DNA from: Candidatus Hodarchaeum mangrovi
Lineage (GTDB): Archaea; Asgardarchaeota; Heimdallarchaeia; Hodarchaeales; Hodarchaeaceae
NCBI GenBank assembly: GCA_016839515.1
Contig: JAEOUE010000198.1
Location: 1 to 49,930 of the forward strand
DNA: 49,930 bases
Direction of reading: 5' to 3'
Below are positions 5,142 to 41,083 of this stretch, piece by piece. The notes below the pieces were generated by a model, which worked only from the letters and a program-made list of their open reading frames with translations, did no database searches and was not told the origin of the DNA. A program made the translations under genes and the position numbers. How positions within the stretch are numbered: position 1 is the stretch's first letter; every line of letters starts with the position of its first letter.

Positions 5142-7106
5142 ATGGTGAATAAGAAAAAAATTCAGCATTTAATTGACCAAAATCAGTTCAATGAAGCATT
5201 AATGATCATTTACAATTTAGAGAATACCAATGATATAGATTTGGAAAATTCTCTAACATTAGAATTCCTTAAATGTCAAATATTAGCTAATATAGGAAAA
5301 ACTATTAAAGGTCTTGAATTAGCAGATAAGGCTCTAATTGTAGCTCGTAATCAGGTTCCAAAAAACCAACAATTACTAGTCGAAGCCATTAATACAAAAG
5401 CTGAGACATTGAGAAAGGCGGAACAATTTACTCCTACATATTCAAGACAGAGATTAATGGAATATCTCCAATTACTTGAAGAAGGAGAACAAATAATCGG
5501 AAACATTTCAGATAGTGAACCAATTGAAATAACAGAACAAAGAGCTACATTATACAGGAATAAAGGATTAATTTACAGTTCATTAAGAAAGTTAGACTAT
5601 GCAGAAAAATGTCTTCAGGAAAGCATTGCACATTATAAAAAGATAGGAAACCCAAAAAAAATCTCTGAAATACTTGTAGATTTAGCTGAGATATTTGGAA
5701 TAAAAAATGAATATAAAAATCAACTAGAAATACTGAATGATTGTTTGAACCTCTGTGAAGAACTTCAGAATAGGGAAGGAATAGTTGAAACCCTCTGGCA
5801 TTTTGCTAGAGCTTATCAAAGAAAGGGGGAACCAGAAACCGCTTCTGTTTATATTCAGAGGAGTTTGCAGCTAGTAAATCAGCTTCCAAGGACTAAACAA
5901 GTAGCATCCCTTCTTTTTAGAATTGGAGATTTTTATTTTAATTTCAGTAATGAAAACGTTATCGTGCTTGATGCTTATCAAAAGAGCTTATCAATTAGTG
6001 AAGAGTTGGATGACAAAGAAGGGATTCAATTTTGTCTCCACTTATTAGGAGATTTACACCAATATACAAAAGGAGATTTAAATAAAGCTTTAGAATACTA
6101 TGAAAGAAGTATGGGGATGTTTAAGGAAGTTGGTGTAAAGATTGTTCATGCCTGGAATTTATTAGATATTGGTAACCTTTATCACCTCAAAGGAGACGTA
6201 GATCGTGCACTTATCTGCTTTCAAAAAGCTCTTCCAATATTGGAAGAGATAAATGATGATTTTTATTTTTGTCAAACGTTTCTTCATATTGGCCGCGTTT
6301 ATCGTACAAAAGGAGACACACATAGCGCATTAAACTATTATAAAAGATGTTTGAAATTATTAAGAGAGAAAAAATTACTTGCGGGCCAAGAAACTGAAGG
6401 ATTAGCTTATTATGAGATAATCACTATAATGCTAGACATTAATAACGTTAATGAAGCGAAAAAGTATTTTGGACTTTTCACTCAATATTATGAAAGGAAG
6501 GAAGTGATTAAACAATTCCTCAATCAGTGGTATAAACTAGCAGAAGCCTTGATATTGAAAACTAGCAATCGGATCAAAGATAAAGCCTTAGCTCAACGTT
6601 TATTTCAAGAAATAATTGATGATCCATATATAAAACTCAATTTATTGAACTATTTAGCTGATTCAAAAAGAACAGCTATGTTAAATCTCTGTGAACTCTT
6701 ACTTTTTGAAATAAAATTGTCACCAAATGAAACAATAAAAGAAAGTGAAGTTTTCCAAGAACTCAAACAAAGGCTAAATAATTTTGCTTCATTAGCTTAT
6801 GAACAAAATATTTTCCCCTTATATGTTGATGTAACAATCCTTAAAGCAAAATTAGCGTTAATTGATGAAAATCTTACAGAAGCAATGCAGCTTCTAATTC
6901 AAGCTAAAAATATAGCAGAAAAAAATGACCTCCAATTTTTATACAAAAGAGTAGTAAGAGAAGAAAAGCAAATTAAAAAGCAATTAAGTTTATGGGAGAA
7001 TCTAATTAGAGAGAATAGTCCACTGTTAGAACGTCTTGCACAAGCTCAAATAGAAGAGTATATCTTAAAAGTTAAAAGAATAATCAATCTCCCAGATGAA
7101 TTATAA
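5142..7106 (+). CDS. Tetratricopeptide repeat protein
   Basis: Repeated TPR units (LG..Y...GD...AL.YY..SL). Confidence 0.85.
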   Translation: MVNKKKIQHLIDQNQFNEALMIIYNLENTNDIDLENSLTLEFLKCQILANIGKTIKGLELADKALIVARNQVPKNQQLLVEAINTKAETLRKAEQFTPTYSRQRLMEYLQLLEEGEQIIGNISDSEPIEITEQRATLYRNKGLIYSSLRKLDYAEKCLQESIAHYKKIGNPKKISEILVDLAEIFGIKNEYKNQLEILNDCLNLCEELQNREGIVETLWHFARAYQRKGEPETASVYIQRSLQLVNQLPRTKQVASLLFRIGDFYFNFSNENVIVLDAYQKSLSISEELDDKEGIQFCLHLLGDLHQYTKGDLNKALEYYERSMGMFKEVGVKIVHAWNLLDIGNLYHLKGDVDRALICFQKALPILEEINDDFYFCQTFLHIGRVYRTKGDTHSALNYYKRCLKLLREKKLLAGQETEGLAYYEIITIMLDINNVNEAKKYFGLFTQYYERKEVIKQFLNQWYKLAEALILKTSNRIKDKALAQRLFQEIIDDPYIKLNLLNYLADSKRTAMLNLCELLLFEIKLSPNETIKESEVFQELKQRLNNFASLAYEQNIFPLYVDVTILKAKLALIDENLTEAMQLLIQAKNIAEKNDLQFLYKRVVREEKQIKKQLSLWENLIRENSPLLERLAQAQIEEYILKVKRIINLPDEL

Positions 7107-35989: not shown

Positions 35990-36270
35990 TAGAATCCCGA
36001 ACTAAGGATATTTAATATTGATTTACATGAAATTGAAAAGGATAATAAATTTTTAGAATAGAAATTAATAACCATTATTGTAAATTTCCTGAACGTATTA
36101 TATTTTTTCTTTTTTTAGATTTTATGGAAAAACTTAGTCTAAGATTTTAGTTAATATCCTTAGATCATCAAACTGTTGAAAAGGTAACGACTATCATCGA
36201 ATCCCATATCTAAAGATTAATAAGTTACAAATAAGCAATTCTCAAGTGGAATTATTAGGAGTTTTTATCA

Positions 36271-36372
36271 ATGCCACGACCTGTTAAAAGAATAGATACA
36301 GAAACAAAAGAAAATGCAACAGAAGATGCTGAAGAAAACACCGATACTGTCCCCATTTCTAAACATTATTGA
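36271..36372 (+). CDS. 33-aa acidic peptide heading the JAB-E1-E2-E2 cassette (candidate modifier/precursor), not in the ORF track
   Basis: AGGAG (36257-36261) 9 nt before ATG; MPRPVKRIDTETKENATEDAEENTDTVPISKHY; 45 bp upstream of the JAB gene, same strand. Confidence 0.7.
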   Translation: MPRPVKRIDTETKENATEDAEENTDTVPISKHY

Positions 36373-36417: not shown

Positions 36418-37329
36418 TTGACTAACAATCATGAAACAATATCATATTCCCTCCAAATTCTTAAATCTGTTTTTAATGTAATGATTAATGAAGCAGAAAA
36501 TAGTAATGGTGTGGAAACTGGGGGAATGTTATTTGGACGAGTTGGAAAACAAAATAAGATTTCTGTATTAAAAACTGTTATCCCTCCCATTGAATTTTGT
36601 ACCAAAGAGAGATACTATTATGAAATCGAGCCTGAGTACGCGAAGAAAGTTGTTAAAAATGAACCTTTATTATATTTGGGGAATTGGCATAAACATTTAG
36701 GATTTGGTGGACCAAGTAGTGGTGATATAGGGGAGGTTGAAGAATTCTTTGAGAAGAATCCCCATTTAAACTTAATTATGACAACTATTCTTGATTATCG
36801 TTCAATCAATGACCATGAACTAATTATTGAAGTTTATGAACGGAGCACTAATTCTTTTCAACCTTTTTCAATTTATTGTATTGATTCAAATGATATTTCA
36901 ATTCTAGAGTCAATTACTTTTGACGAACAGGAGAACAAAGAAATAGGAATCTCAAAAAATAAGATTGAAAGGATAAAAAAAGAGCTAGCCATTGTTTATA
37001 AAGATCTATTCAGTATTTCAGACATCCATGAGTTTTCAGGTTCAACTCCTGGAGAAAAAATACTTTCATTTCCATATTATTTTAAGATAAATGGTATTTC
37101 GCTAAATTTATTGATTTTACTTTCAATTCCCCCTGAATATCCTGATGGACAACTCTTTATTGATATCTCTTCTCTCGATATGTCACGAAATTTCACCTTT
37201 GATAAACACCCAGCCTCGGTTATCGATGAGGAAGAACTAATCAATCCCTTTCTTTCATTATTAAAAACCACTTTAGAAGATGAAGTTCCTGAAATGTTAA
37301 AAAAACCATTATGGAAAATAATGCAATGA
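36418..37329 (+). CDS. JAB/MPN+ metalloprotease fused to a C-terminal E2/RWD-like domain
   Basis: ETGG and GNWHKH-x5-PS-x2-D JAMM motif; C-terminal LSIPPEYP motif; SD GGTGAGG at 36400-36406. Confidence 0.85.
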   Translation: MTNNHETISYSLQILKSVFNVMINEAENSNGVETGGMLFGRVGKQNKISVLKTVIPPIEFCTKERYYYEIEPEYAKKVVKNEPLLYLGNWHKHLGFGGPSSGDIGEVEEFFEKNPHLNLIMTTILDYRSINDHELIIEVYERSTNSFQPFSIYCIDSNDISILESITFDEQENKEIGISKNKIERIKKELAIVYKDLFSISDIHEFSGSTPGEKILSFPYYFKINGISLNLLILLSIPPEYPDGQLFIDISSLDMSRNFTFDKHPASVIDEEELINPFLSLLKTTLEDEVPEMLKKPLWKIMQ

Positions 37330-37344
37330 TTATGGGGCATCATT

Positions 37345-38571
37345 ATGCGATTAATAGTTTATCCATCCTTTGAAAAACGCTTTATTGGTTATAAAAATCA
37401 TTCACATATTTTCTTAGTTTATGGCAAGGTTTATGACGATTTTCAAGTGGTTCATTTAATTGATTTAATATCTACCCCTAATTCACAGCTAATTGGTTAC
37501 CTAAAAGTTGGAACCTCTCAGGAGGAAGAACTATATCGAACAGCGAAGGAATTGGATTACCCCTACCTTTATTTTATTACAGAATCACGAAGCTTAGAAG
37601 GATTATCAATAAATCTCTTTAAAAAGGACGAGACGATCCTGAATATCGAGTATGAGATTGAAAAGCTAGATTTATCACGATTATTTGTTAGAATAGATCA
37701 AAAAGAAACTCCATTAAATGCATTAAGAAACAAAAGTGTTGCAATCATTGGTCTTGGGTCAGGTGGATCCCTACTTGCCCTTTATCTGGCGAAATCTGGC
37801 GTAAAAAACTTCATTTTTATTGATGATGATCAATTAGAAACACATAATATAATTCGCCATCTTTGTGATATATCACAGATAGGTAGATATAAAACATTGG
37901 CAGTAAAAGATTATATCCTTGCTAGGATTCCTGATGTAACGATCCAAACTATAGAAAGAAAATTTCTTCTCGATACAAAGGAAGATTTTGATTATTTTCT
38001 GACTCTCCTTGGATCTATTGACCTTATAGCAGCTGTTTCAGGAGAACATGATGTAAATTACGCGATTAATGACTTTATCCATAGTAATCAGCTACCTATC
38101 CCTGTGGTATTTGCAGGAACTTTTGAAGGAGTTAAAGGAGGATTAATGTTTAAAGTTGACCCCCGAAACAGTGATTTTTGTTATCATTGTATTTATGCGA
38201 GACCAGAAAATTATGGAAGTATCCGTACAAAGGCCATTCCGACTACTGAAGAATTAGAACGAAAAATAAGCTATGATAGAACCATGCAAGAGCAATTAGC
38301 ACAACCAGGATTAGGTTTAGACGTTGATAATTTAACAATTTTATTGGCAAAATTCTGTTTAGACATCTTATTAACAAACATACCTCATGGATTATATCAA
38401 TTTCCCCATAATTTCTATATGTGGTTTAACCGAACGATCTTAAAACCCAATGGAGAGGTTAAGTTTGATGGAATGGAACTATATTATTATGAAGATTTAG
38501 ATAAGGACATTTCTTGTCCTTATCACGGGTTTGAGATAAAACAAACAACAGAAGTTGATAAAACGGAATAA
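37345..38571 (+). CDS. ThiF/MoeB/E1-like adenylyltransferase
   Basis: IIGLGSGGS, IDDDQLETHNIIRH, IGRYK, CYHC and CPYH Zn ligands. Confidence 0.92.
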   Translation: MRLIVYPSFEKRFIGYKNHSHIFLVYGKVYDDFQVVHLIDLISTPNSQLIGYLKVGTSQEEELYRTAKELDYPYLYFITESRSLEGLSINLFKKDETILNIEYEIEKLDLSRLFVRIDQKETPLNALRNKSVAIIGLGSGGSLLALYLAKSGVKNFIFIDDDQLETHNIIRHLCDISQIGRYKTLAVKDYILARIPDVTIQTIERKFLLDTKEDFDYFLTLLGSIDLIAAVSGEHDVNYAINDFIHSNQLPIPVVFAGTFEGVKGGLMFKVDPRNSDFCYHCIYARPENYGSIRTKAIPTTEELERKISYDRTMQEQLAQPGLGLDVDNLTILLAKFCLDILLTNIPHGLYQFPHNFYMWFNRTILKPNGEVKFDGMELYYYEDLDKDISCPYHGFEIKQTTEVDKTE

Positions 38572-38577
38572 AGTATA

Positions 38578-39012
38578 ATGTTGATGCGAAAAAGTTTACC
38601 AGAACGTGAAATCCCTCATATCACAAAACTTTTTCCTACAATTAAAAAAAAGGACTTTCGAAAGCTACCAAATGGAAATTATTGCCTACAAGTAAGTTTC
38701 AATACAACAGGGAAATATGCTTGTGGATTTTTTGATGTTTTAATTGAATATCCCTATAATTATCCAATGGCTGGTCCTAAAGCTTGGATCCAAAGACCTG
38801 ACATTTCACGAAAGACCCCCCATGTTTACGAATGGGATAAAGAAAATCATGCGAATATCTGCTATAATCGACCTAAGAAAGATTGGCATTTTAGTTATAG
38901 CTCCTATGAAGCCTGTTTGATGATTGAATCGTGGATTACAACCTACTGTCGCTGGATAAAAACCCAAATATGGGATTGGCCAGAAGCTGGTATGTTGGAC
39001 CATTTATTTTGA
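38578..39012 (+). CDS. Ubiquitin-conjugating E2-like protein 1
   Basis: TGKYACGFF.VLIEYP.NYP..GP, PHVY...NIC(95)Y, downstream W. Confidence 0.85.
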   Translation: MLMRKSLPEREIPHITKLFPTIKKKDFRKLPNGNYCLQVSFNTTGKYACGFFDVLIEYPYNYPMAGPKAWIQRPDISRKTPHVYEWDKENHANICYNRPKKDWHFSYSSYEACLMIESWITTYCRWIKTQIWDWPEAGMLDHLF

Positions 39013-39035: not shown

Positions 39036-39440
39036 ATGCAACGGACTGTTGAAAAAGAACTCCACGAATTGAAAGGGGTATTTCCTTCCATAACACGAGA
39101 TGATTTTTATCGGTTATCAAATGGAAATATTGGTGTTCTGGTTAAATACCTAACTACAGGACCATATGCTCGTGGAACCTTTGTTGTACTGATAGAATTC
39201 CCCCATAATTACCCCAATGCGCCTCCTCATGCTTGGATTGTCAAACCAAAAATTCATCCCAAAACTCATCATATCTATCGCAAAGATGAATATGGTCAAA
39301 CTGAAATATGTTATTTACGACCGCAAAAAGATTGGCATTATTCATTTACTGCTTACGACGCAGCTATTATGATCCAAACCTGGATTTGGGCATATTGTAA
39401 ATGGCGGAAAACAGGTAAATGGGATTGGAAGGAAGCTTAA
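39036..39440 (+). CDS. Ubiquitin-conjugating E2-like protein 2
   Basis: TGPYARGTF.VLIEFP.NYP.APP, HHIY...EIC(92)Y; SD AAGGAG; clear paralog of the upstream gene. Confidence 0.87.
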   Translation: MQRTVEKELHELKGVFPSITRDDFYRLSNGNIGVLVKYLTTGPYARGTFVVLIEFPHNYPNAPPHAWIVKPKIHPKTHHIYRKDEYGQTEICYLRPQKDWHYSFTAYDAAIMIQTWIWAYCKWRKTGKWDWKEA

Positions 39441-39580
39441 GTCTTCATTCAGTTTAAAGACGCAAAAGTTTATCATAAATTTCATAAGACTATTCCTAAA
39501 TGTGAATTGCCACAAGCACTCTCTTAATACATAATAAGTTATACCTTTTTTTACCAAAATTATAACTCAGGAAATAAGAC

Positions 39581-41083
39581 TTGGGTTTGAGAATAATGAA
39601 TGAAATTATTTTTGCTTGCTTAGTTGACTTTAGATATTTCAATTTAGAATCAATCTTATTTGCTACAAGTATCCGAGAATTTGGAGGAAAGCTAGCAAAT
39701 ACTCCTATCTGGATGTTTTTTGATTCTACTGAATCAAGTCCAAAATCAGTAACTGAAAATAAACTAAATGATTTGAGAGTACAATTATTCCCCTATACTC
39801 ATGAGCCCAATCAAGAACGATTTCCATTTCTTAATTGGGTATTTACTGCCTCATTAGCTGAAACAAAAGCTAAATCCAAAACTAAAAATTTAGCATGGCT
39901 AAGTCCTGAAACATTAATTCTAAATGAGCCTTTTGATTTAATCTTACAGGCAGATAAAAAACTTGGATTTCGACCAGTTCATCACACTCTGATTGGATCA
40001 GTAATTACTGAAGAAGTAGATCCTTATTGGAAAACTATATACAATTTATGTCAAGTTGATGCAACAAAAATCTTTCCAATGAGAACTCATATAGATGGAA
40101 AGACCATTCGTCCTTATTTCAATGCTGGATGCCTTGTTGTAAACCCTAATCATGGTATACTAAACCTATGGTTTGAAAAATTTAAAGAAATTTTCCCAAG
40201 ACCAGAGATGAAAGAATTCTACAAACATAATGAACTCTATGCAATTTTTACTCACCAAGCCATTCTTGTTGGAACTGTAATCTCGAAATATGATTTAGAT
40301 GAAATTCAAGAATTACCTTTTACCTATAATTATCCGCTGCATCTTTATCATGAGGCCCGTGAAGAACTACGCCCTTCAAGTATTAAAGATTTAACAACAA
40401 TTCGATACGAAAATCTAGCTGTGTTAAAAAATTCAGAATTTGCTAAACCAATTATAGAATGGGTTAATAATCAACTGGATATTCTAAATCCAGACATATC
40501 ACAATTTGGGAAATACTCATTAGGACCAAAACCCCTTATTTTTCCTATTCCTATCTCTTTAGTGGGAGCACTTGTAGCAGGAAAACCTAATTTTGAAACA
40601 ATTGGGGATGTGGGAATTATGGGCTTAAACCCTCCCCTTGTTTATGTCTCCTCTCATAAAGAGCATTATACTAATCATGGAATCCTACGAAACCAAACCT
40701 TCTCAATTAATCTACCTCCAACTTCTTTATTGCCTCAAACTGACTATTGTGGGGTTGTCTCAGGAAAGGATGTTGATAAGTCACAACTTTTCACTGTATT
40801 TTATGGAAAACTACACAATGCCCCAATGATTGTTGAAGCTTCTGTTAACTTGGAATGCAAAGTAATAAAAGAATTCTCCATTCAAAATCGACAAATCTTC
40901 ATTGGAGAAGTAGTCCAGTCATACATTGATGAGAGGTTGCTAGAAAAAAAGGGGGATGAATTTAAAATTAAGGATATGATTAATATAGATCCAATAATTT
41001 ATGGACTAAATAATCGCTATTACAGTATTGGTAAAGAAATTGGAGTAGGATACCATGAATACAAGAAATTTAAACCTGATTAA
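39581..41083 (+). CDS. Fusion of GT-A (GT8-like) domain and flavin reductase-like (flavoredoxin) domain
   Basis: N-terminal SIREFGG, PYFNAGCLV, YNYP; C-terminal P.PI.LV, NPP, H.T..GI....FSIN.P, DYCGVVSG..VDK, APMI.E...LEC, FIGEVV. Confidence 0.75.
   Translation: MGLRIMNEIIFACLVDFRYFNLESILFATSIREFGGKLANTPIWMFFDSTESSPKSVTENKLNDLRVQLFPYTHEPNQERFPFLNWVFTASLAETKAKSKTKNLAWLSPETLILNEPFDLILQADKKLGFRPVHHTLIGSVITEEVDPYWKTIYNLCQVDATKIFPMRTHIDGKTIRPYFNAGCLVVNPNHGILNLWFEKFKEIFPRPEMKEFYKHNELYAIFTHQAILVGTVISKYDLDEIQELPFTYNYPLHLYHEAREELRPSSIKDLTTIRYENLAVLKNSEFAKPIIEWVNNQLDILNPDISQFGKYSLGPKPLIFPIPISLVGALVAGKPNFETIGDVGIMGLNPPLVYVSSHKEHYTNHGILRNQTFSINLPPTSLLPQTDYCGVVSGKDVDKSQLFTVFYGKLHNAPMIVEASVNLECKVIKEFSIQNRQIFIGEVVQSYIDERLLEKKGDEFKIKDMINIDPIIYGLNNRYYSIGKEIGVGYHEYKKFKPD

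Follow-up and report, generated by a model that had tools for sequence, protein, structure and literature searches.

A Tyr-type E1 and Cys-type E2s in an Asgard archaeal operon suggest mixed ester/thioester protein tagging

Described systems and the Hodarchaeum locus

Before the bacterial Bub systems were described, every E1 enzyme was, to our knowledge, thought to need a cysteine. The Bub study of the Corbett laboratory (PMC11601596) reports E1s without a cysteine in the crossover loop, where the sole invariant residue is a tyrosine; exchanging it for phenylalanine (Y370F in Citrobacter BubCD, Y342F in E. coli BubBD) abolishes conjugation, and the E2s of these systems use serine. A tyrosine-using E1 is, in other words, already published for Bub. 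Here we describe an E1 of another family, encoded in a 49,930-nucleotide stretch of DNA from the Asgard archaeon Candidatus Hodarchaeum mangrovi (assembly GCA_016839515.1, contig JAEOUE010000198.1, positions 1 to 49,930; we call the whole stretch the window). Its crossover loop has no cysteine, its Tyr310 is invariant in our curated alignment, its partner E2s are of the cysteine type, and a conserved 33-residue peptide is encoded at the head of its operon. What sets it apart from Bub as new is the E1 family it belongs to, its pairing with Cys-type E2s, its archaeal host and its candidate peptide tag. An earlier reading made from the sequence alone (the sequence-only reading) had invoked Bub as a precedent and named Tyr310 as a candidate nucleophile; the precedent is real, in that an invariant crossover-loop tyrosine is reported for the Bub E1s (PMC11601596).

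The operon has five genes, which encode a 33-residue peptide, a JAMM peptidase, an E1 fused to an apparently dead MPN domain, and the two E2s, E2a and E2b. The E1 gene is the third. The coding features of the operon are as follows.

36271..36372, plus strand: 33-residue peptide MPRPVKRIDTETKENATEDAEENTDTVPISKHY, candidate tag and candidate E1 substrate
36418..37329, plus strand: JAB/JAMM metallopeptidase (residues ~1-150) with a C-terminal domain of ~140 residues
37345..37689, plus strand: E1 N-terminal domain, residues 1-115, of MPN/JAB fold without the JAMM metal site
37690..38571, plus strand: E1 adenylation domain of ThiF fold (Pfam ThiF match and AlphaFold2 model)
38578..39012, plus strand: E2a, 144 residues, with His82 and Cys95 (codon 38860-38862); PADLOC E2 model, 5.8e-7
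39036..39440, plus strand: E2b, 134 residues, with His79 and Cys92 (codon 39309-39311); Pfam UQ_con

The likenesses to Bub (BubCD and BubBD; PDB 9EA4, 9EA5, 9EA8, 9EAE and 9EAV) are evident. Both E1s have a Cys-free loop with one invariant tyrosine, a likeness of kind. In BubCD as in this E1 an MPN/JAB fold is fused before the E1 domain, and both E1s work with a separate UBC-fold E2. There are differences too. Against the profile of this family BubCD scores 3e-8, whereas ThiF scores 3e-31. The E2s use serine in Bub but have cysteine and histidine here (24 of 24), the fused MPN domain here lacks the JAMM site while the active JAB is a separate gene, and the hosts here are archaea. A Bub operon includes the beta-grasp protein BubA, whereas none is found here and the candidate tag is the 33-residue peptide. 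DUF6527 (BubE) has no Pfam match in the 45 open reading frames (ORFs) of the window, the presence of PF20137 in the Pfam set being unconfirmed. Membership in Bub was rejected on account of the remote E1 kinship, the Cys and His E2s, the missing DUF6527 match and the missing beta-grasp gene.

Type II CBASS (PDB 7TO3 and 7TSQ) offers a second comparison. Its Cap2 is the best match for the E1 in both PADLOC and Foldseek, its Cap3-type JAB models match the JAB gene (1.6e-11) and its E2 models match both E2s; neither system has a beta-grasp ubiquitin-like protein (Ubl). Cap2 is a single E2-linker-E1 chain with a loop cysteine, C548, that conjugates a CD-NTase (10.1101/2022.03.31.486616), whereas here the E2s are separate genes and the loop carries a tyrosine. 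None of the 45 ORFs of the window has a Pfam hit to a nucleotidyltransferase of this kind.

The homodimeric E1-like enzymes ThiF, MoeB and UBA5 have the same adenylation fold as this E1 (VIA Z 25-26.5) and agree with it in both the ATP-site residues and the zinc site, but they have beta-grasp substrates ending in GG or VG, a loop cysteine and no MPN domain. MccB/MccA and PaaA resemble the locus in joining a ThiF-fold enzyme to an adjacently encoded ribosomal peptide substrate, and differ in that their product is a modified peptide and that they have no E2 or JAB partners. The actinobacterial Pup system (PafA, Dop) uses a short, acidic, apparently unstructured peptide tag that, like the candidate here, is not a beta-grasp protein. 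Pupylation differs in employing a glutamine-synthetase-like ligase that acts through a side-chain carboxylate, with no E1, E2 or JAMM enzyme. In the literature that we covered, which took in neither Burroughs et al. 2009 nor the supplements to the Bub and Cap2 reports, neither a Tyr-type E1 outside Bub nor this operon was found; a 2025 review of E1 enzymes in the Journal of Biological Chemistry (PMC12355090) contains none of the words 'tyrosine', 'oxyester' and 'Bub'.

By sequence and modelled fold the adenylation domain belongs among the E1s. It matches Pfam ThiF (PF00899) at 3.6e-26 (92 bits, cut-off 28.1), and the AlphaFold2 model of the full protein has a mean predicted local distance difference test (pLDDT) score of 91 and a predicted TM-score of 0.90. 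With VIA, residues 107-405 of the model score Z 26.5 with UBA5, 25.5 with MoeB and 25.1 with ThiF; by Z-score the modelled domain is a generic E1. The family profile, compared with PDB sequences, ranks ThiF (3.4e-31), MoeB (1.2e-30), UBA5 (8.7e-29), MccB (3e-26), Cap2 (9.7e-25) and PaaA (1.2e-22) well ahead of BubCD (3.2e-8, 36 bits), which aligns over profile positions 134-258 only, the N-terminal half of the domain. BubCD also ranks under the SUMO and NEDD8 E1s and Atg7, and it is absent from the 32 PDB hits of the bacterial representative P0131. The single E1 sequence matches MccB at 8.5e-8 and PaaA at 7.3e-7 in the PDB, while its best PADLOC models are the CBASS 'E1-E2' (Cap2) models at 5.8e-29. 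In Foldseek Cap2 comes top (9.6e-17), followed by UBA5, Atg7, BubCD and ThiF, all within 2-3 orders of magnitude. The whole model aligns with BubCD over 474-482 columns (E 1e-14 to 3e-13) with a TM-score of 0.42-0.44 and a root-mean-square deviation (rmsd) of 18-20 Å.

The crossover loop and Tyr310

The E1 gene is an ORF of 408 residues (37345-38571, plus strand), and the positions within it on which the argument turns are these.

38272..38274, plus strand: Tyr310, candidate nucleophile and sole invariant loop residue; the role is suggested by its conservation and the Bub precedent
38191..38304, plus strand: crossover loop, residues 283-320, 38 residues, Cys-free
38179..38190, plus strand: C279-x2-C282, first half of the structural zinc site (C279 codon 38179-38181, C282 codon 38188-38190)
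37864..37866, plus strand: Cys174 (in RHLC), sole other cysteine near the ATP site, three residues after the ATP-binding Arg171
38041..38046, plus strand: Gly233-Glu234, at the place of the Asp in the ThiF/MoeB 'TD' motif

Five cysteines occur in the translation: C174 (RHLC), C279, C282, C338 (KFCL) and C391 (CPYH). The sequence-only reading had held that the loop after C279-x2-C282 is without cysteine and that the remaining ones are confined to RHLC, KFCL and CPYH. Both statements are correct, as the sequence 3' of C282 is IYARPENYGSIRTKAIPTTEELERKISYDRTMQEQLAQPGLGLD, with zero cysteines, none lies at residues 283-320, and the other three are C174, C338 and C391. The stretch singled out by that reading ends at position 38330, within codon 329. 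Taken alone, a Cys-free loop of 38 residues is no signal: with five cysteines in 408 residues, about two in three such loops would be Cys-free. The signal lies in the comparison across the family.

A phmmer search of 1.84 billion cluster representatives returned 5637 hits at E <= 0.001, of which 714 were at or below 1e-10 and 26 at or below 1e-30. The best 150 of the 5637 hits and the query form a representative set of 151 sequences, 149 of which span the loop. The conserved loop cysteine of canonical thioester E1s is absent from the query and likewise from 144 of these 149. A loop cysteine of any kind is found in the other five; in three of them it adjoins the CxxC motif and the tyrosine is kept.

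Tyr310 presents the opposite picture. It is invariant in all 120 listed homologues (MAFFT alignment) and in 105 of 105 sequences of a curated alignment (A1) whose members go down to 23% identity with the query. The only other invariant columns of A1 are G136, G138, G152, N168, R171 and K183, all in the ATP site, and every other column in 283-320 reaches at most 53 of 105. Across the representatives that cover the loop, tyrosine occupies the Tyr310 column in 140 of 149. In seven of the nine exceptions a tyrosine is shifted by 1-3 residues (EEIYG, EIYK, AAYRHPG, PYNSPG, GYNQPG, GYRQPG), and the other two are E2-E1 fusions of ~590 residues with a cysteine there (SGCSYPA and YNCGMPT). The invariance of the tyrosine in the SYD motif, which the sequence-only reading had put forward as a check, is thus strongly borne out (120/120, 105/105, 140/149), and Tyr310 as a candidate nucleophile is strongly supported by conservation.

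The same reading had allowed that another cysteine might take the part of the tyrosine. C174 fits best, yet it is not a cysteine in 33 of the 151 representatives (Cys 118, Gly 13, Ala 12, Leu 4, Ser 2, Lys 1, gap 1); among the 120 listed homologues the position holds Cys in 109, Ser in 7 and Leu in 4. Since C174 is not conserved, it is no family-wide nucleophile. C338 is a cysteine in 46 of the 120. The remaining three cysteines belong to a structural zinc site, consisting of C279 and C282 (Cys in 103 of 105 each, A1) and of their partners C391 and H394 in a second half, C391-x2-H394 (38515-38526). Of 62 close homologues, 60 read C-x2-H in this half; of 58 that are more distant, 41 read C-x2-C. 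The fourth zinc ligand is a His among the close homologues and a Cys among the distant ones.

There is no inserted domain in the crossover loop. In the AlphaFold2 model the mean pLDDT falls to 76 (residues 281-290), 60 (291-300), 64 (301-310) and 60 (311-320), with flanks at 92-98, and this drop points to a mobile loop. An invariant residue within a free, mobile loop has the look of a catalytic loop, unlike a core residue.

The ATP site has the features of the superfamily (GxGxxG, Asn, Arg and Lys), with G136, G138, N168, R171 and K183 each present in 105 of 105 sequences. One position departs from the norm. The Gly233 column, which we take to be that of the Mg-binding Asp of the 'TD' motif, holds Asp in 103, Gly in 38, Ala in 8 and a gap in 2 of the 151 representatives. 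The archaeal subfamily reads S-G-E-H, while its bacterial relatives and ThiF/MoeB read T-D. Residue 234 is Glu in 59 and Asp in 3 of the 62 close homologues. The acidic residue appears to have shifted by one position in the archaeal subfamily, and Glu234 could restore the function of the Mg site.

Partner genes, the upstream peptide and the genomic setting

E2a and E2b are paralogous UBC-fold E2s. E2b matches Pfam UQ_con at 6.2e-7 (29.6 bits, cut-off 27), and in PADLOC both proteins match CBASS E2 models. His79 and Cys92 (E2b numbering), at canonical spacing, are invariant in all 16 Asgard copies and likewise throughout a broader sample of 24 E2s, Nitrososphaeraceae and metagenomic proteins among them. 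The sequence-only reading had taken the E2s to be of the cysteine type and had spoken of a hybrid chemistry; given the cysteine in all 24, this is the right framing.

The C-termini of the E2s were compared as well (38995-39012 at the end of E2a, 39433-39440 at the end of E2b). E2b ends in ...WDW(K/R)EA in 8 of 8 sequences, and E2a has a conserved extension, G(F/M)(W/L/F)(D/N)H(L/F/M).., after ...PEA in 8 of 8. We had considered the E2 tail as a substrate for adenylation. The tails vary in the Nitrososphaeraceae and metagenomic E2s, one metagenomic E2a-type protein reading PEAK with K in place of G, and the idea was dropped once the peptide had come to light. The E2 homologues P0263-P0285 carry the precomputed Pfam label PF26395.1, and rows of the ESM Atlas mention PF26398 ('Cap2_linker'), so newer Pfam releases may group these proteins with parts of Cap2.

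The JAB gene matches Pfam Prok-JAB at E 0.0038, under the curated cut-off, and PADLOC JAB models at up to 1.6e-11. Its JAMM motif is intact, with E25, E33, H91, H93, S100 and D103 invariant in 9 of 9 sequences, and from this motif the protein is predicted to be an active JAMM peptidase. Residues 165-303 (36910-37326) are well conserved too, with 37 invariant columns in six sequences, and a C-terminal motif, ...LILLS(I/F)PP(E/N)(Y/F)P(D/E)G..., weakly matches the 'LIEFPxNYP' flap of E2s. Compared with the E2 family by hhalign, the C-terminal half shows a match that is collinear but weak (probability 3.7%, E 0.012), and its profile finds nothing below E 0.07 among PDB sequences. It may be a variant E2 domain without a cysteine.

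The N-terminal domain of the E1 is of MPN fold. Folded alone, residues 1-115 reach a pLDDT of 84 (AlphaFold2), and all top Foldseek hits are MPN proteins (best E 3.9e-4, TMq 0.54-0.64). A VIA-wide comparison gives Z 9.2-6.4 for its best 28 rows, which were not identified row by row; among them are Rpn8/Rpn11, CSN5/6, BRCC36, BilC, Cap3 and the BubCD JAB domain (Z 7.4, rmsd 2.8 Å over 107 aligned residues). The Atg7 N-terminal domain (Z 6.3-5.8) and the Cap2 linker (4.7) score lower. No JAMM motif (HxH...D) was found in the domain, in which P7, G27, D31 and P73 are the only invariant residues, and no signal emerged when its profile was set against that of the adjacent JAB (probability 0.2%). 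Our reading of the model is that of a dead MPN domain. Active and dead MPN domains often pair, as in Rpn11-Rpn8 and CSN5-CSN6; by this analogy the E1 N-terminus could dock the peptidase, or hold the substrate. Searches of the ESM Atlas with the JAB C-terminal half and the E1 N-terminus gave scores of 0.75-0.79, which is chance level, the sole lead being a 'Cap2 linker' row at 0.76.

Among the flanking ORFs of at least 40 residues there is no conserved Ubl-sized gene in or next to the cassette, and the only ones that recur are a tetratricopeptide repeat (TPR) protein (3 loci) and a 156-residue protein (2 loci). What does recur is the peptide, which the sequence-only reading had missed, as it had the dead MPN domain. 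Wherever an Asgard locus includes upstream DNA (6 of 6), the peptide ORF lies directly 5' of JAB, and a form of 52-55 residues stands 5' of JAB in 4 of 4 Nitrososphaeraceae loci examined. The distance from the peptide to the assigned JAB start is 22-52 nucleotides in five of the six Asgard loci. In the sixth (L002) the peptide overlaps a longer JAB ORF call by 47 nucleotides, and the true JAB start there is therefore probably further downstream.

Across the Asgard loci the peptide is 79-91% identical, compared with 44-49% for JAB and 59-66% for the E1. The pairwise differences between the Asgard peptide ORFs fall at codon positions 1, 2 and 3 in the ratio 49:24:233, with 199 synonymous and 63 non-synonymous codon differences, and DNA identity is 79% in the ORF against 37% (ungapped) in the 99 nucleotides upstream. 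These figures point to a strong coding signature. The Nitrososphaeraceae form, MPRDLK...TIPNIKHF(Y/F) followed by 3-5 residues, is represented by 25 database clusters, which bear only the name 'hypothetical protein' where they are named and have no Pfam family. Twelve residues are invariant in both lineages: M1, P2, R3, K6, K13, A16, E18, D19, T26, P28, K31 and H32.

The peptide and the E1 also occur together across the genus. The peptide is single-copy in this genome. Nine genomes besides G000 were covered when searching for the E1 as well as for the peptide: the two genes are both found in five of them, neither is found in three, and in one there is the E1 only. In those five the two genes are ~1 kb apart on one strand, and in the E1-only genome the contig ends before the peptide site. 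Five of the six Asgard forms stop at the conserved end K-H-aromatic, their true C-terminus; in the other forms, among them the Asgard one that reads ...KHY-RN, a variable tail comes after it. Ubl precursors show such a pattern, and the tail would be trimmed by the peptidase of the operon.

Three further signals may frame the transcription unit.

36211..36223, plus strand: promoter-like box TAAAGATTAATAA (TATA/BRE-like), ~48-60 nucleotides 5' of the peptide start; putative role
36256..36261, plus strand: TAGGAG, ribosome-binding-like site, 9 nucleotides 5' of the peptide ATG; putative role
39546..39552, plus strand: run of seven T, possible archaeal terminator, ~105 nucleotides after the E2b stop, read from the sequence of this locus

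All six Asgard loci have the 13-mer TAAAGATTAATAA, exact or with one base changed, at this same position, and all six also have (T/A)AGGAG.

The order JAB-E1-E2a-E2b is kept in these six Asgard loci and in a seventh that is cut before the JAB gene, and the flanks differ. In Nitrososphaeraceae, JAB-E1-E2 is found in 4 of 4 loci examined of 15 fetched (35-42% identity). The named close homologues (56-86% identity) are all proteins from metagenome-assembled genomes of Heimdall-, Hod-, Hermod-, Thor- or Promethearchaeota. The E1 gene occurs in seven of the 201 Asgard genomes that were sampled, all in its own genus (6 of 10 others) and none among the 190 elsewhere. No relative of the E1 was found on viral contigs. 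Because the E1 is patchy within one genus, it is, on this distribution, not a eukaryote ancestor. The idea of a forerunner of Atg7/Atg3/Atg10 was dropped for the same reason and because the Atg7 N-terminus has a lower Z than the MPN proteins.

Six bacterial loci, from Syntrophales, Verrucomicrobia, Acidobacteria and Deltaproteobacteria, were examined. Three of them (L031, L033 and L035) have a Pfam-identified JAB and an E2-like gene 5' of the E1, with an extra gene of ~330 residues between the two in L033 and L035. The three E2-like neighbours have a cysteine in the catalytic column, and their E1s keep the tyrosine and have no loop cysteine. What comes after the bacterial cassettes is often a TPR protein or an ATPase of HerA/FtsK-like type. 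An ATPase of ~930-960 residues follows the Tyr-type E1 at L031:7018-9897 and L036:6970-9747, an arrangement typical of defence islands, and TPR proteins follow the E1 in three of the six (L032, L033 and L034).

In a FastTree analysis of 148 representatives and the four other E1s of the genome, the Tyr family forms one clade (support 0.84) and the archaeal-type group another (0.998), with the two Cys-bearing fusions inside a weakly supported fusion subclade (0.38). The tree is only indicative, as the sequences in it were picked for their likeness to the query.

In all, five genes of the genome belong to the ThiF family. The four others (contigs C153, C304, C138 and C234; loci L011-L014) each have a crossover-loop cysteine and each adjoin a small gene ending in GG or AG; three of them have small Ubl genes beside them with the endings TTGG(+KR), STAG (two tandem copies) and IKGG. 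Beside two of the four, on other contigs than the operon, there are three ubiquitin-family matches. The Tyr-type E1 is the only ThiF-family gene of the genome without an adjacent gene ending in GG or AG.

Some neighbours deserve a record of their own. A TPR protein comes directly after E2b in three of seven Asgard loci (L002:10356-12071, L003:3113-4813 and L007:2050-3734); these proteins are homologous to a 654-residue TPR protein of the window (5142-7106, plus strand), 30 kb from the operon. A TPR protein could be a specificity factor or a target. After a 140-nucleotide gap the operon is followed by a 500-residue protein with a C-terminal flavin-reductase domain (39581-41083, plus strand), which is not adjacent to the cassette in other loci; in L002 a 191-residue homologue is found 5 kb upstream. 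CDP-archaeol synthase is encoded in the window too, along with ordinary housekeeping genes.

Proposed chemistry, its rivals and its meaning

The reading that we modestly favour has the peptide adenylated by the E1, carried as an aryl ester on Tyr310 and then taken over by an E2 cysteine. The E1 would adenylate the C-terminal carboxylate of the peptide (...KHY), and the hydroxyl of Tyr310, on its mobile loop, would attack the acyl-adenylate to give a peptide~O-Tyr aryl ester that replaces the usual E1 thioester. The loop would then swing out, Cys95 of E2a or Cys92 of E2b would accept the acyl group as a thioester, and the E2 would hand the peptide on to a target protein, at a lysine. Since aryl esters are activated esters, transfer from one to a thiolate is chemically reasonable. 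The JAMM peptidase would trim the C-terminal extensions of the precursors (the Nitrososphaeraceae forms and one Asgard form) and may also strip the tag from targets. The dead MPN domain may serve as a holder for the peptide or as a dock for the active peptidase. All of the chemical steps, the peptide as substrate and the targets are what we infer.

A broader claim can be built on this one. The machinery would conjugate a 33-residue, non-beta-grasp, aromatic-ended peptide by way of a Tyr aryl ester and an E2 Cys thioester, the same Tyr-type E1 chemistry would occur in at least 140 clusters (50% identity) of bacteria and archaea, and 'Ubl-less' triads would then hide tags encoded by micro-ORFs. 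In this full form we hold the claim to be possible but somewhat doubtful.

Several points weigh against a covalent part for Tyr310 or against the peptide as its cargo. The invariance of the residue is no proof of a covalent role. It stands 10 residues before the PGLG that closes the loop, while the catalytic cysteines of ThiF, MoeB and UBA5 are, we assume, nearer the loop end. A C-terminal Tyr or Phe is an unusual end for an E1 substrate, and the peptide was not found in the six bacterial loci, for which a crude motif screen was used that does not show absence. The Mg-binding Asp column is Gly233 in this E1, with Glu234 next to it. In addition, the P0082-like subgroup has T-G-R-H at this column and no CxxC, yet keeps the tyrosine, which fits a role of the tyrosine independent of adenylation. 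In the Bub work the tyrosine adduct was not trapped, and a BubA-BubCD band that stays in Y370F was called off-pathway (PMC11601596). Finally, Cap2 C548A is reported to conjugate still in vitro through the E2 cysteine, so an E1 nucleophile can be dispensable (10.1101/2022.03.31.486616).

The last three observations are what a rival account would draw on, in which Tyr310 is essential but never acylated. It would clamp or orient the peptide tail, close the site or hydrogen-bond the acyl phosphate, and the E2 cysteine would attack the adenylate, leaving a single covalent intermediate. That the best PADLOC defence match of the E1 is to the Cap2-type 'E1-E2' models also suits this account. A positioning residue would usually allow Phe, Trp or His in so wide a family, though, and here Tyr is found in 105 of 105, the nine exceptions among 149 being mostly alignment slips, with a tyrosine 1-3 residues off, or cysteine instead. 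Moreover, a Tyr-to-Phe exchange removes the hydroxyl only, and yet it kills the Bub reaction (PMC11601596). We regard the account as unlikely, although it is the strongest of the rivals. It is improbable that the E1 only adenylates a peptide in the manner of MccB or PaaA, with an intramolecular or small-molecule reaction to follow and Tyr310 as a substrate contact. MccB and PaaA are indeed among the best PDB sequence matches, both for the single sequence and for the profile, and the candidate substrate is a short non-beta-grasp peptide; against this, the operon has an intact JAMM peptidase and a pair of Cys-type E2s as fixed members. The N-terminus of the E1 is furthermore an MPN fold, and the MccB N-terminal domain, presumably a peptide-binding one, is not among the 50 VIA-wide matches listed.

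Two other alternatives would remove the tyrosine from the chemistry altogether. Cys174 lies next to the ATP-site motif in sequence and is Cys in 55 of 62 close homologues, which makes it eligible as the real nucleophile of the Asgard proteins. It is Ser in the other 7, however, and among the 151 representatives 32 have Gly, Ala, Leu, Ser or Lys there and one more has a gap, all of which keep the tyrosine. Nor is C174 on a mobile element; we consider this alternative highly improbable. The least probable of all is that the E1 is a catalytically dead scaffold and that the operon runs without ATP-dependent activation. The canonical Mg-binding Asp column, which is Gly in this subfamily, would speak for it, whereas the invariance of G136, G138, G152, N168, R171 and K183 and the acidic residue at 234 in 62 of 62 close homologues speak for a working site.

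If the peptide is attached to lysines as proposed, trypsin is expected to leave a His-Tyr remnant of ~+300.12 Da on them, as computed from residue masses.

For the E1 superfamily, the locus points to a second and much larger Tyr-type lineage, nearer to ThiF, UBA5 and Cap2 than to Bub and shared by archaea and bacteria. Its Tyr-type E1 is paired with Cys E2s, a pairing that Bub lacks. Should the tyrosine be a true nucleophile, a single cascade can join oxyester steps with thioester ones. 'Ubl-less' E1-E2-JAB triads have reportedly been described since 2006, and the conserved 33-residue gene suggests that operons of this kind, seemingly without a Ubl, use peptide tags that gene callers have missed. 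In summary, the operon suggests a possible form of protein tagging in these archaea, in which ester and thioester chemistry would be mixed.

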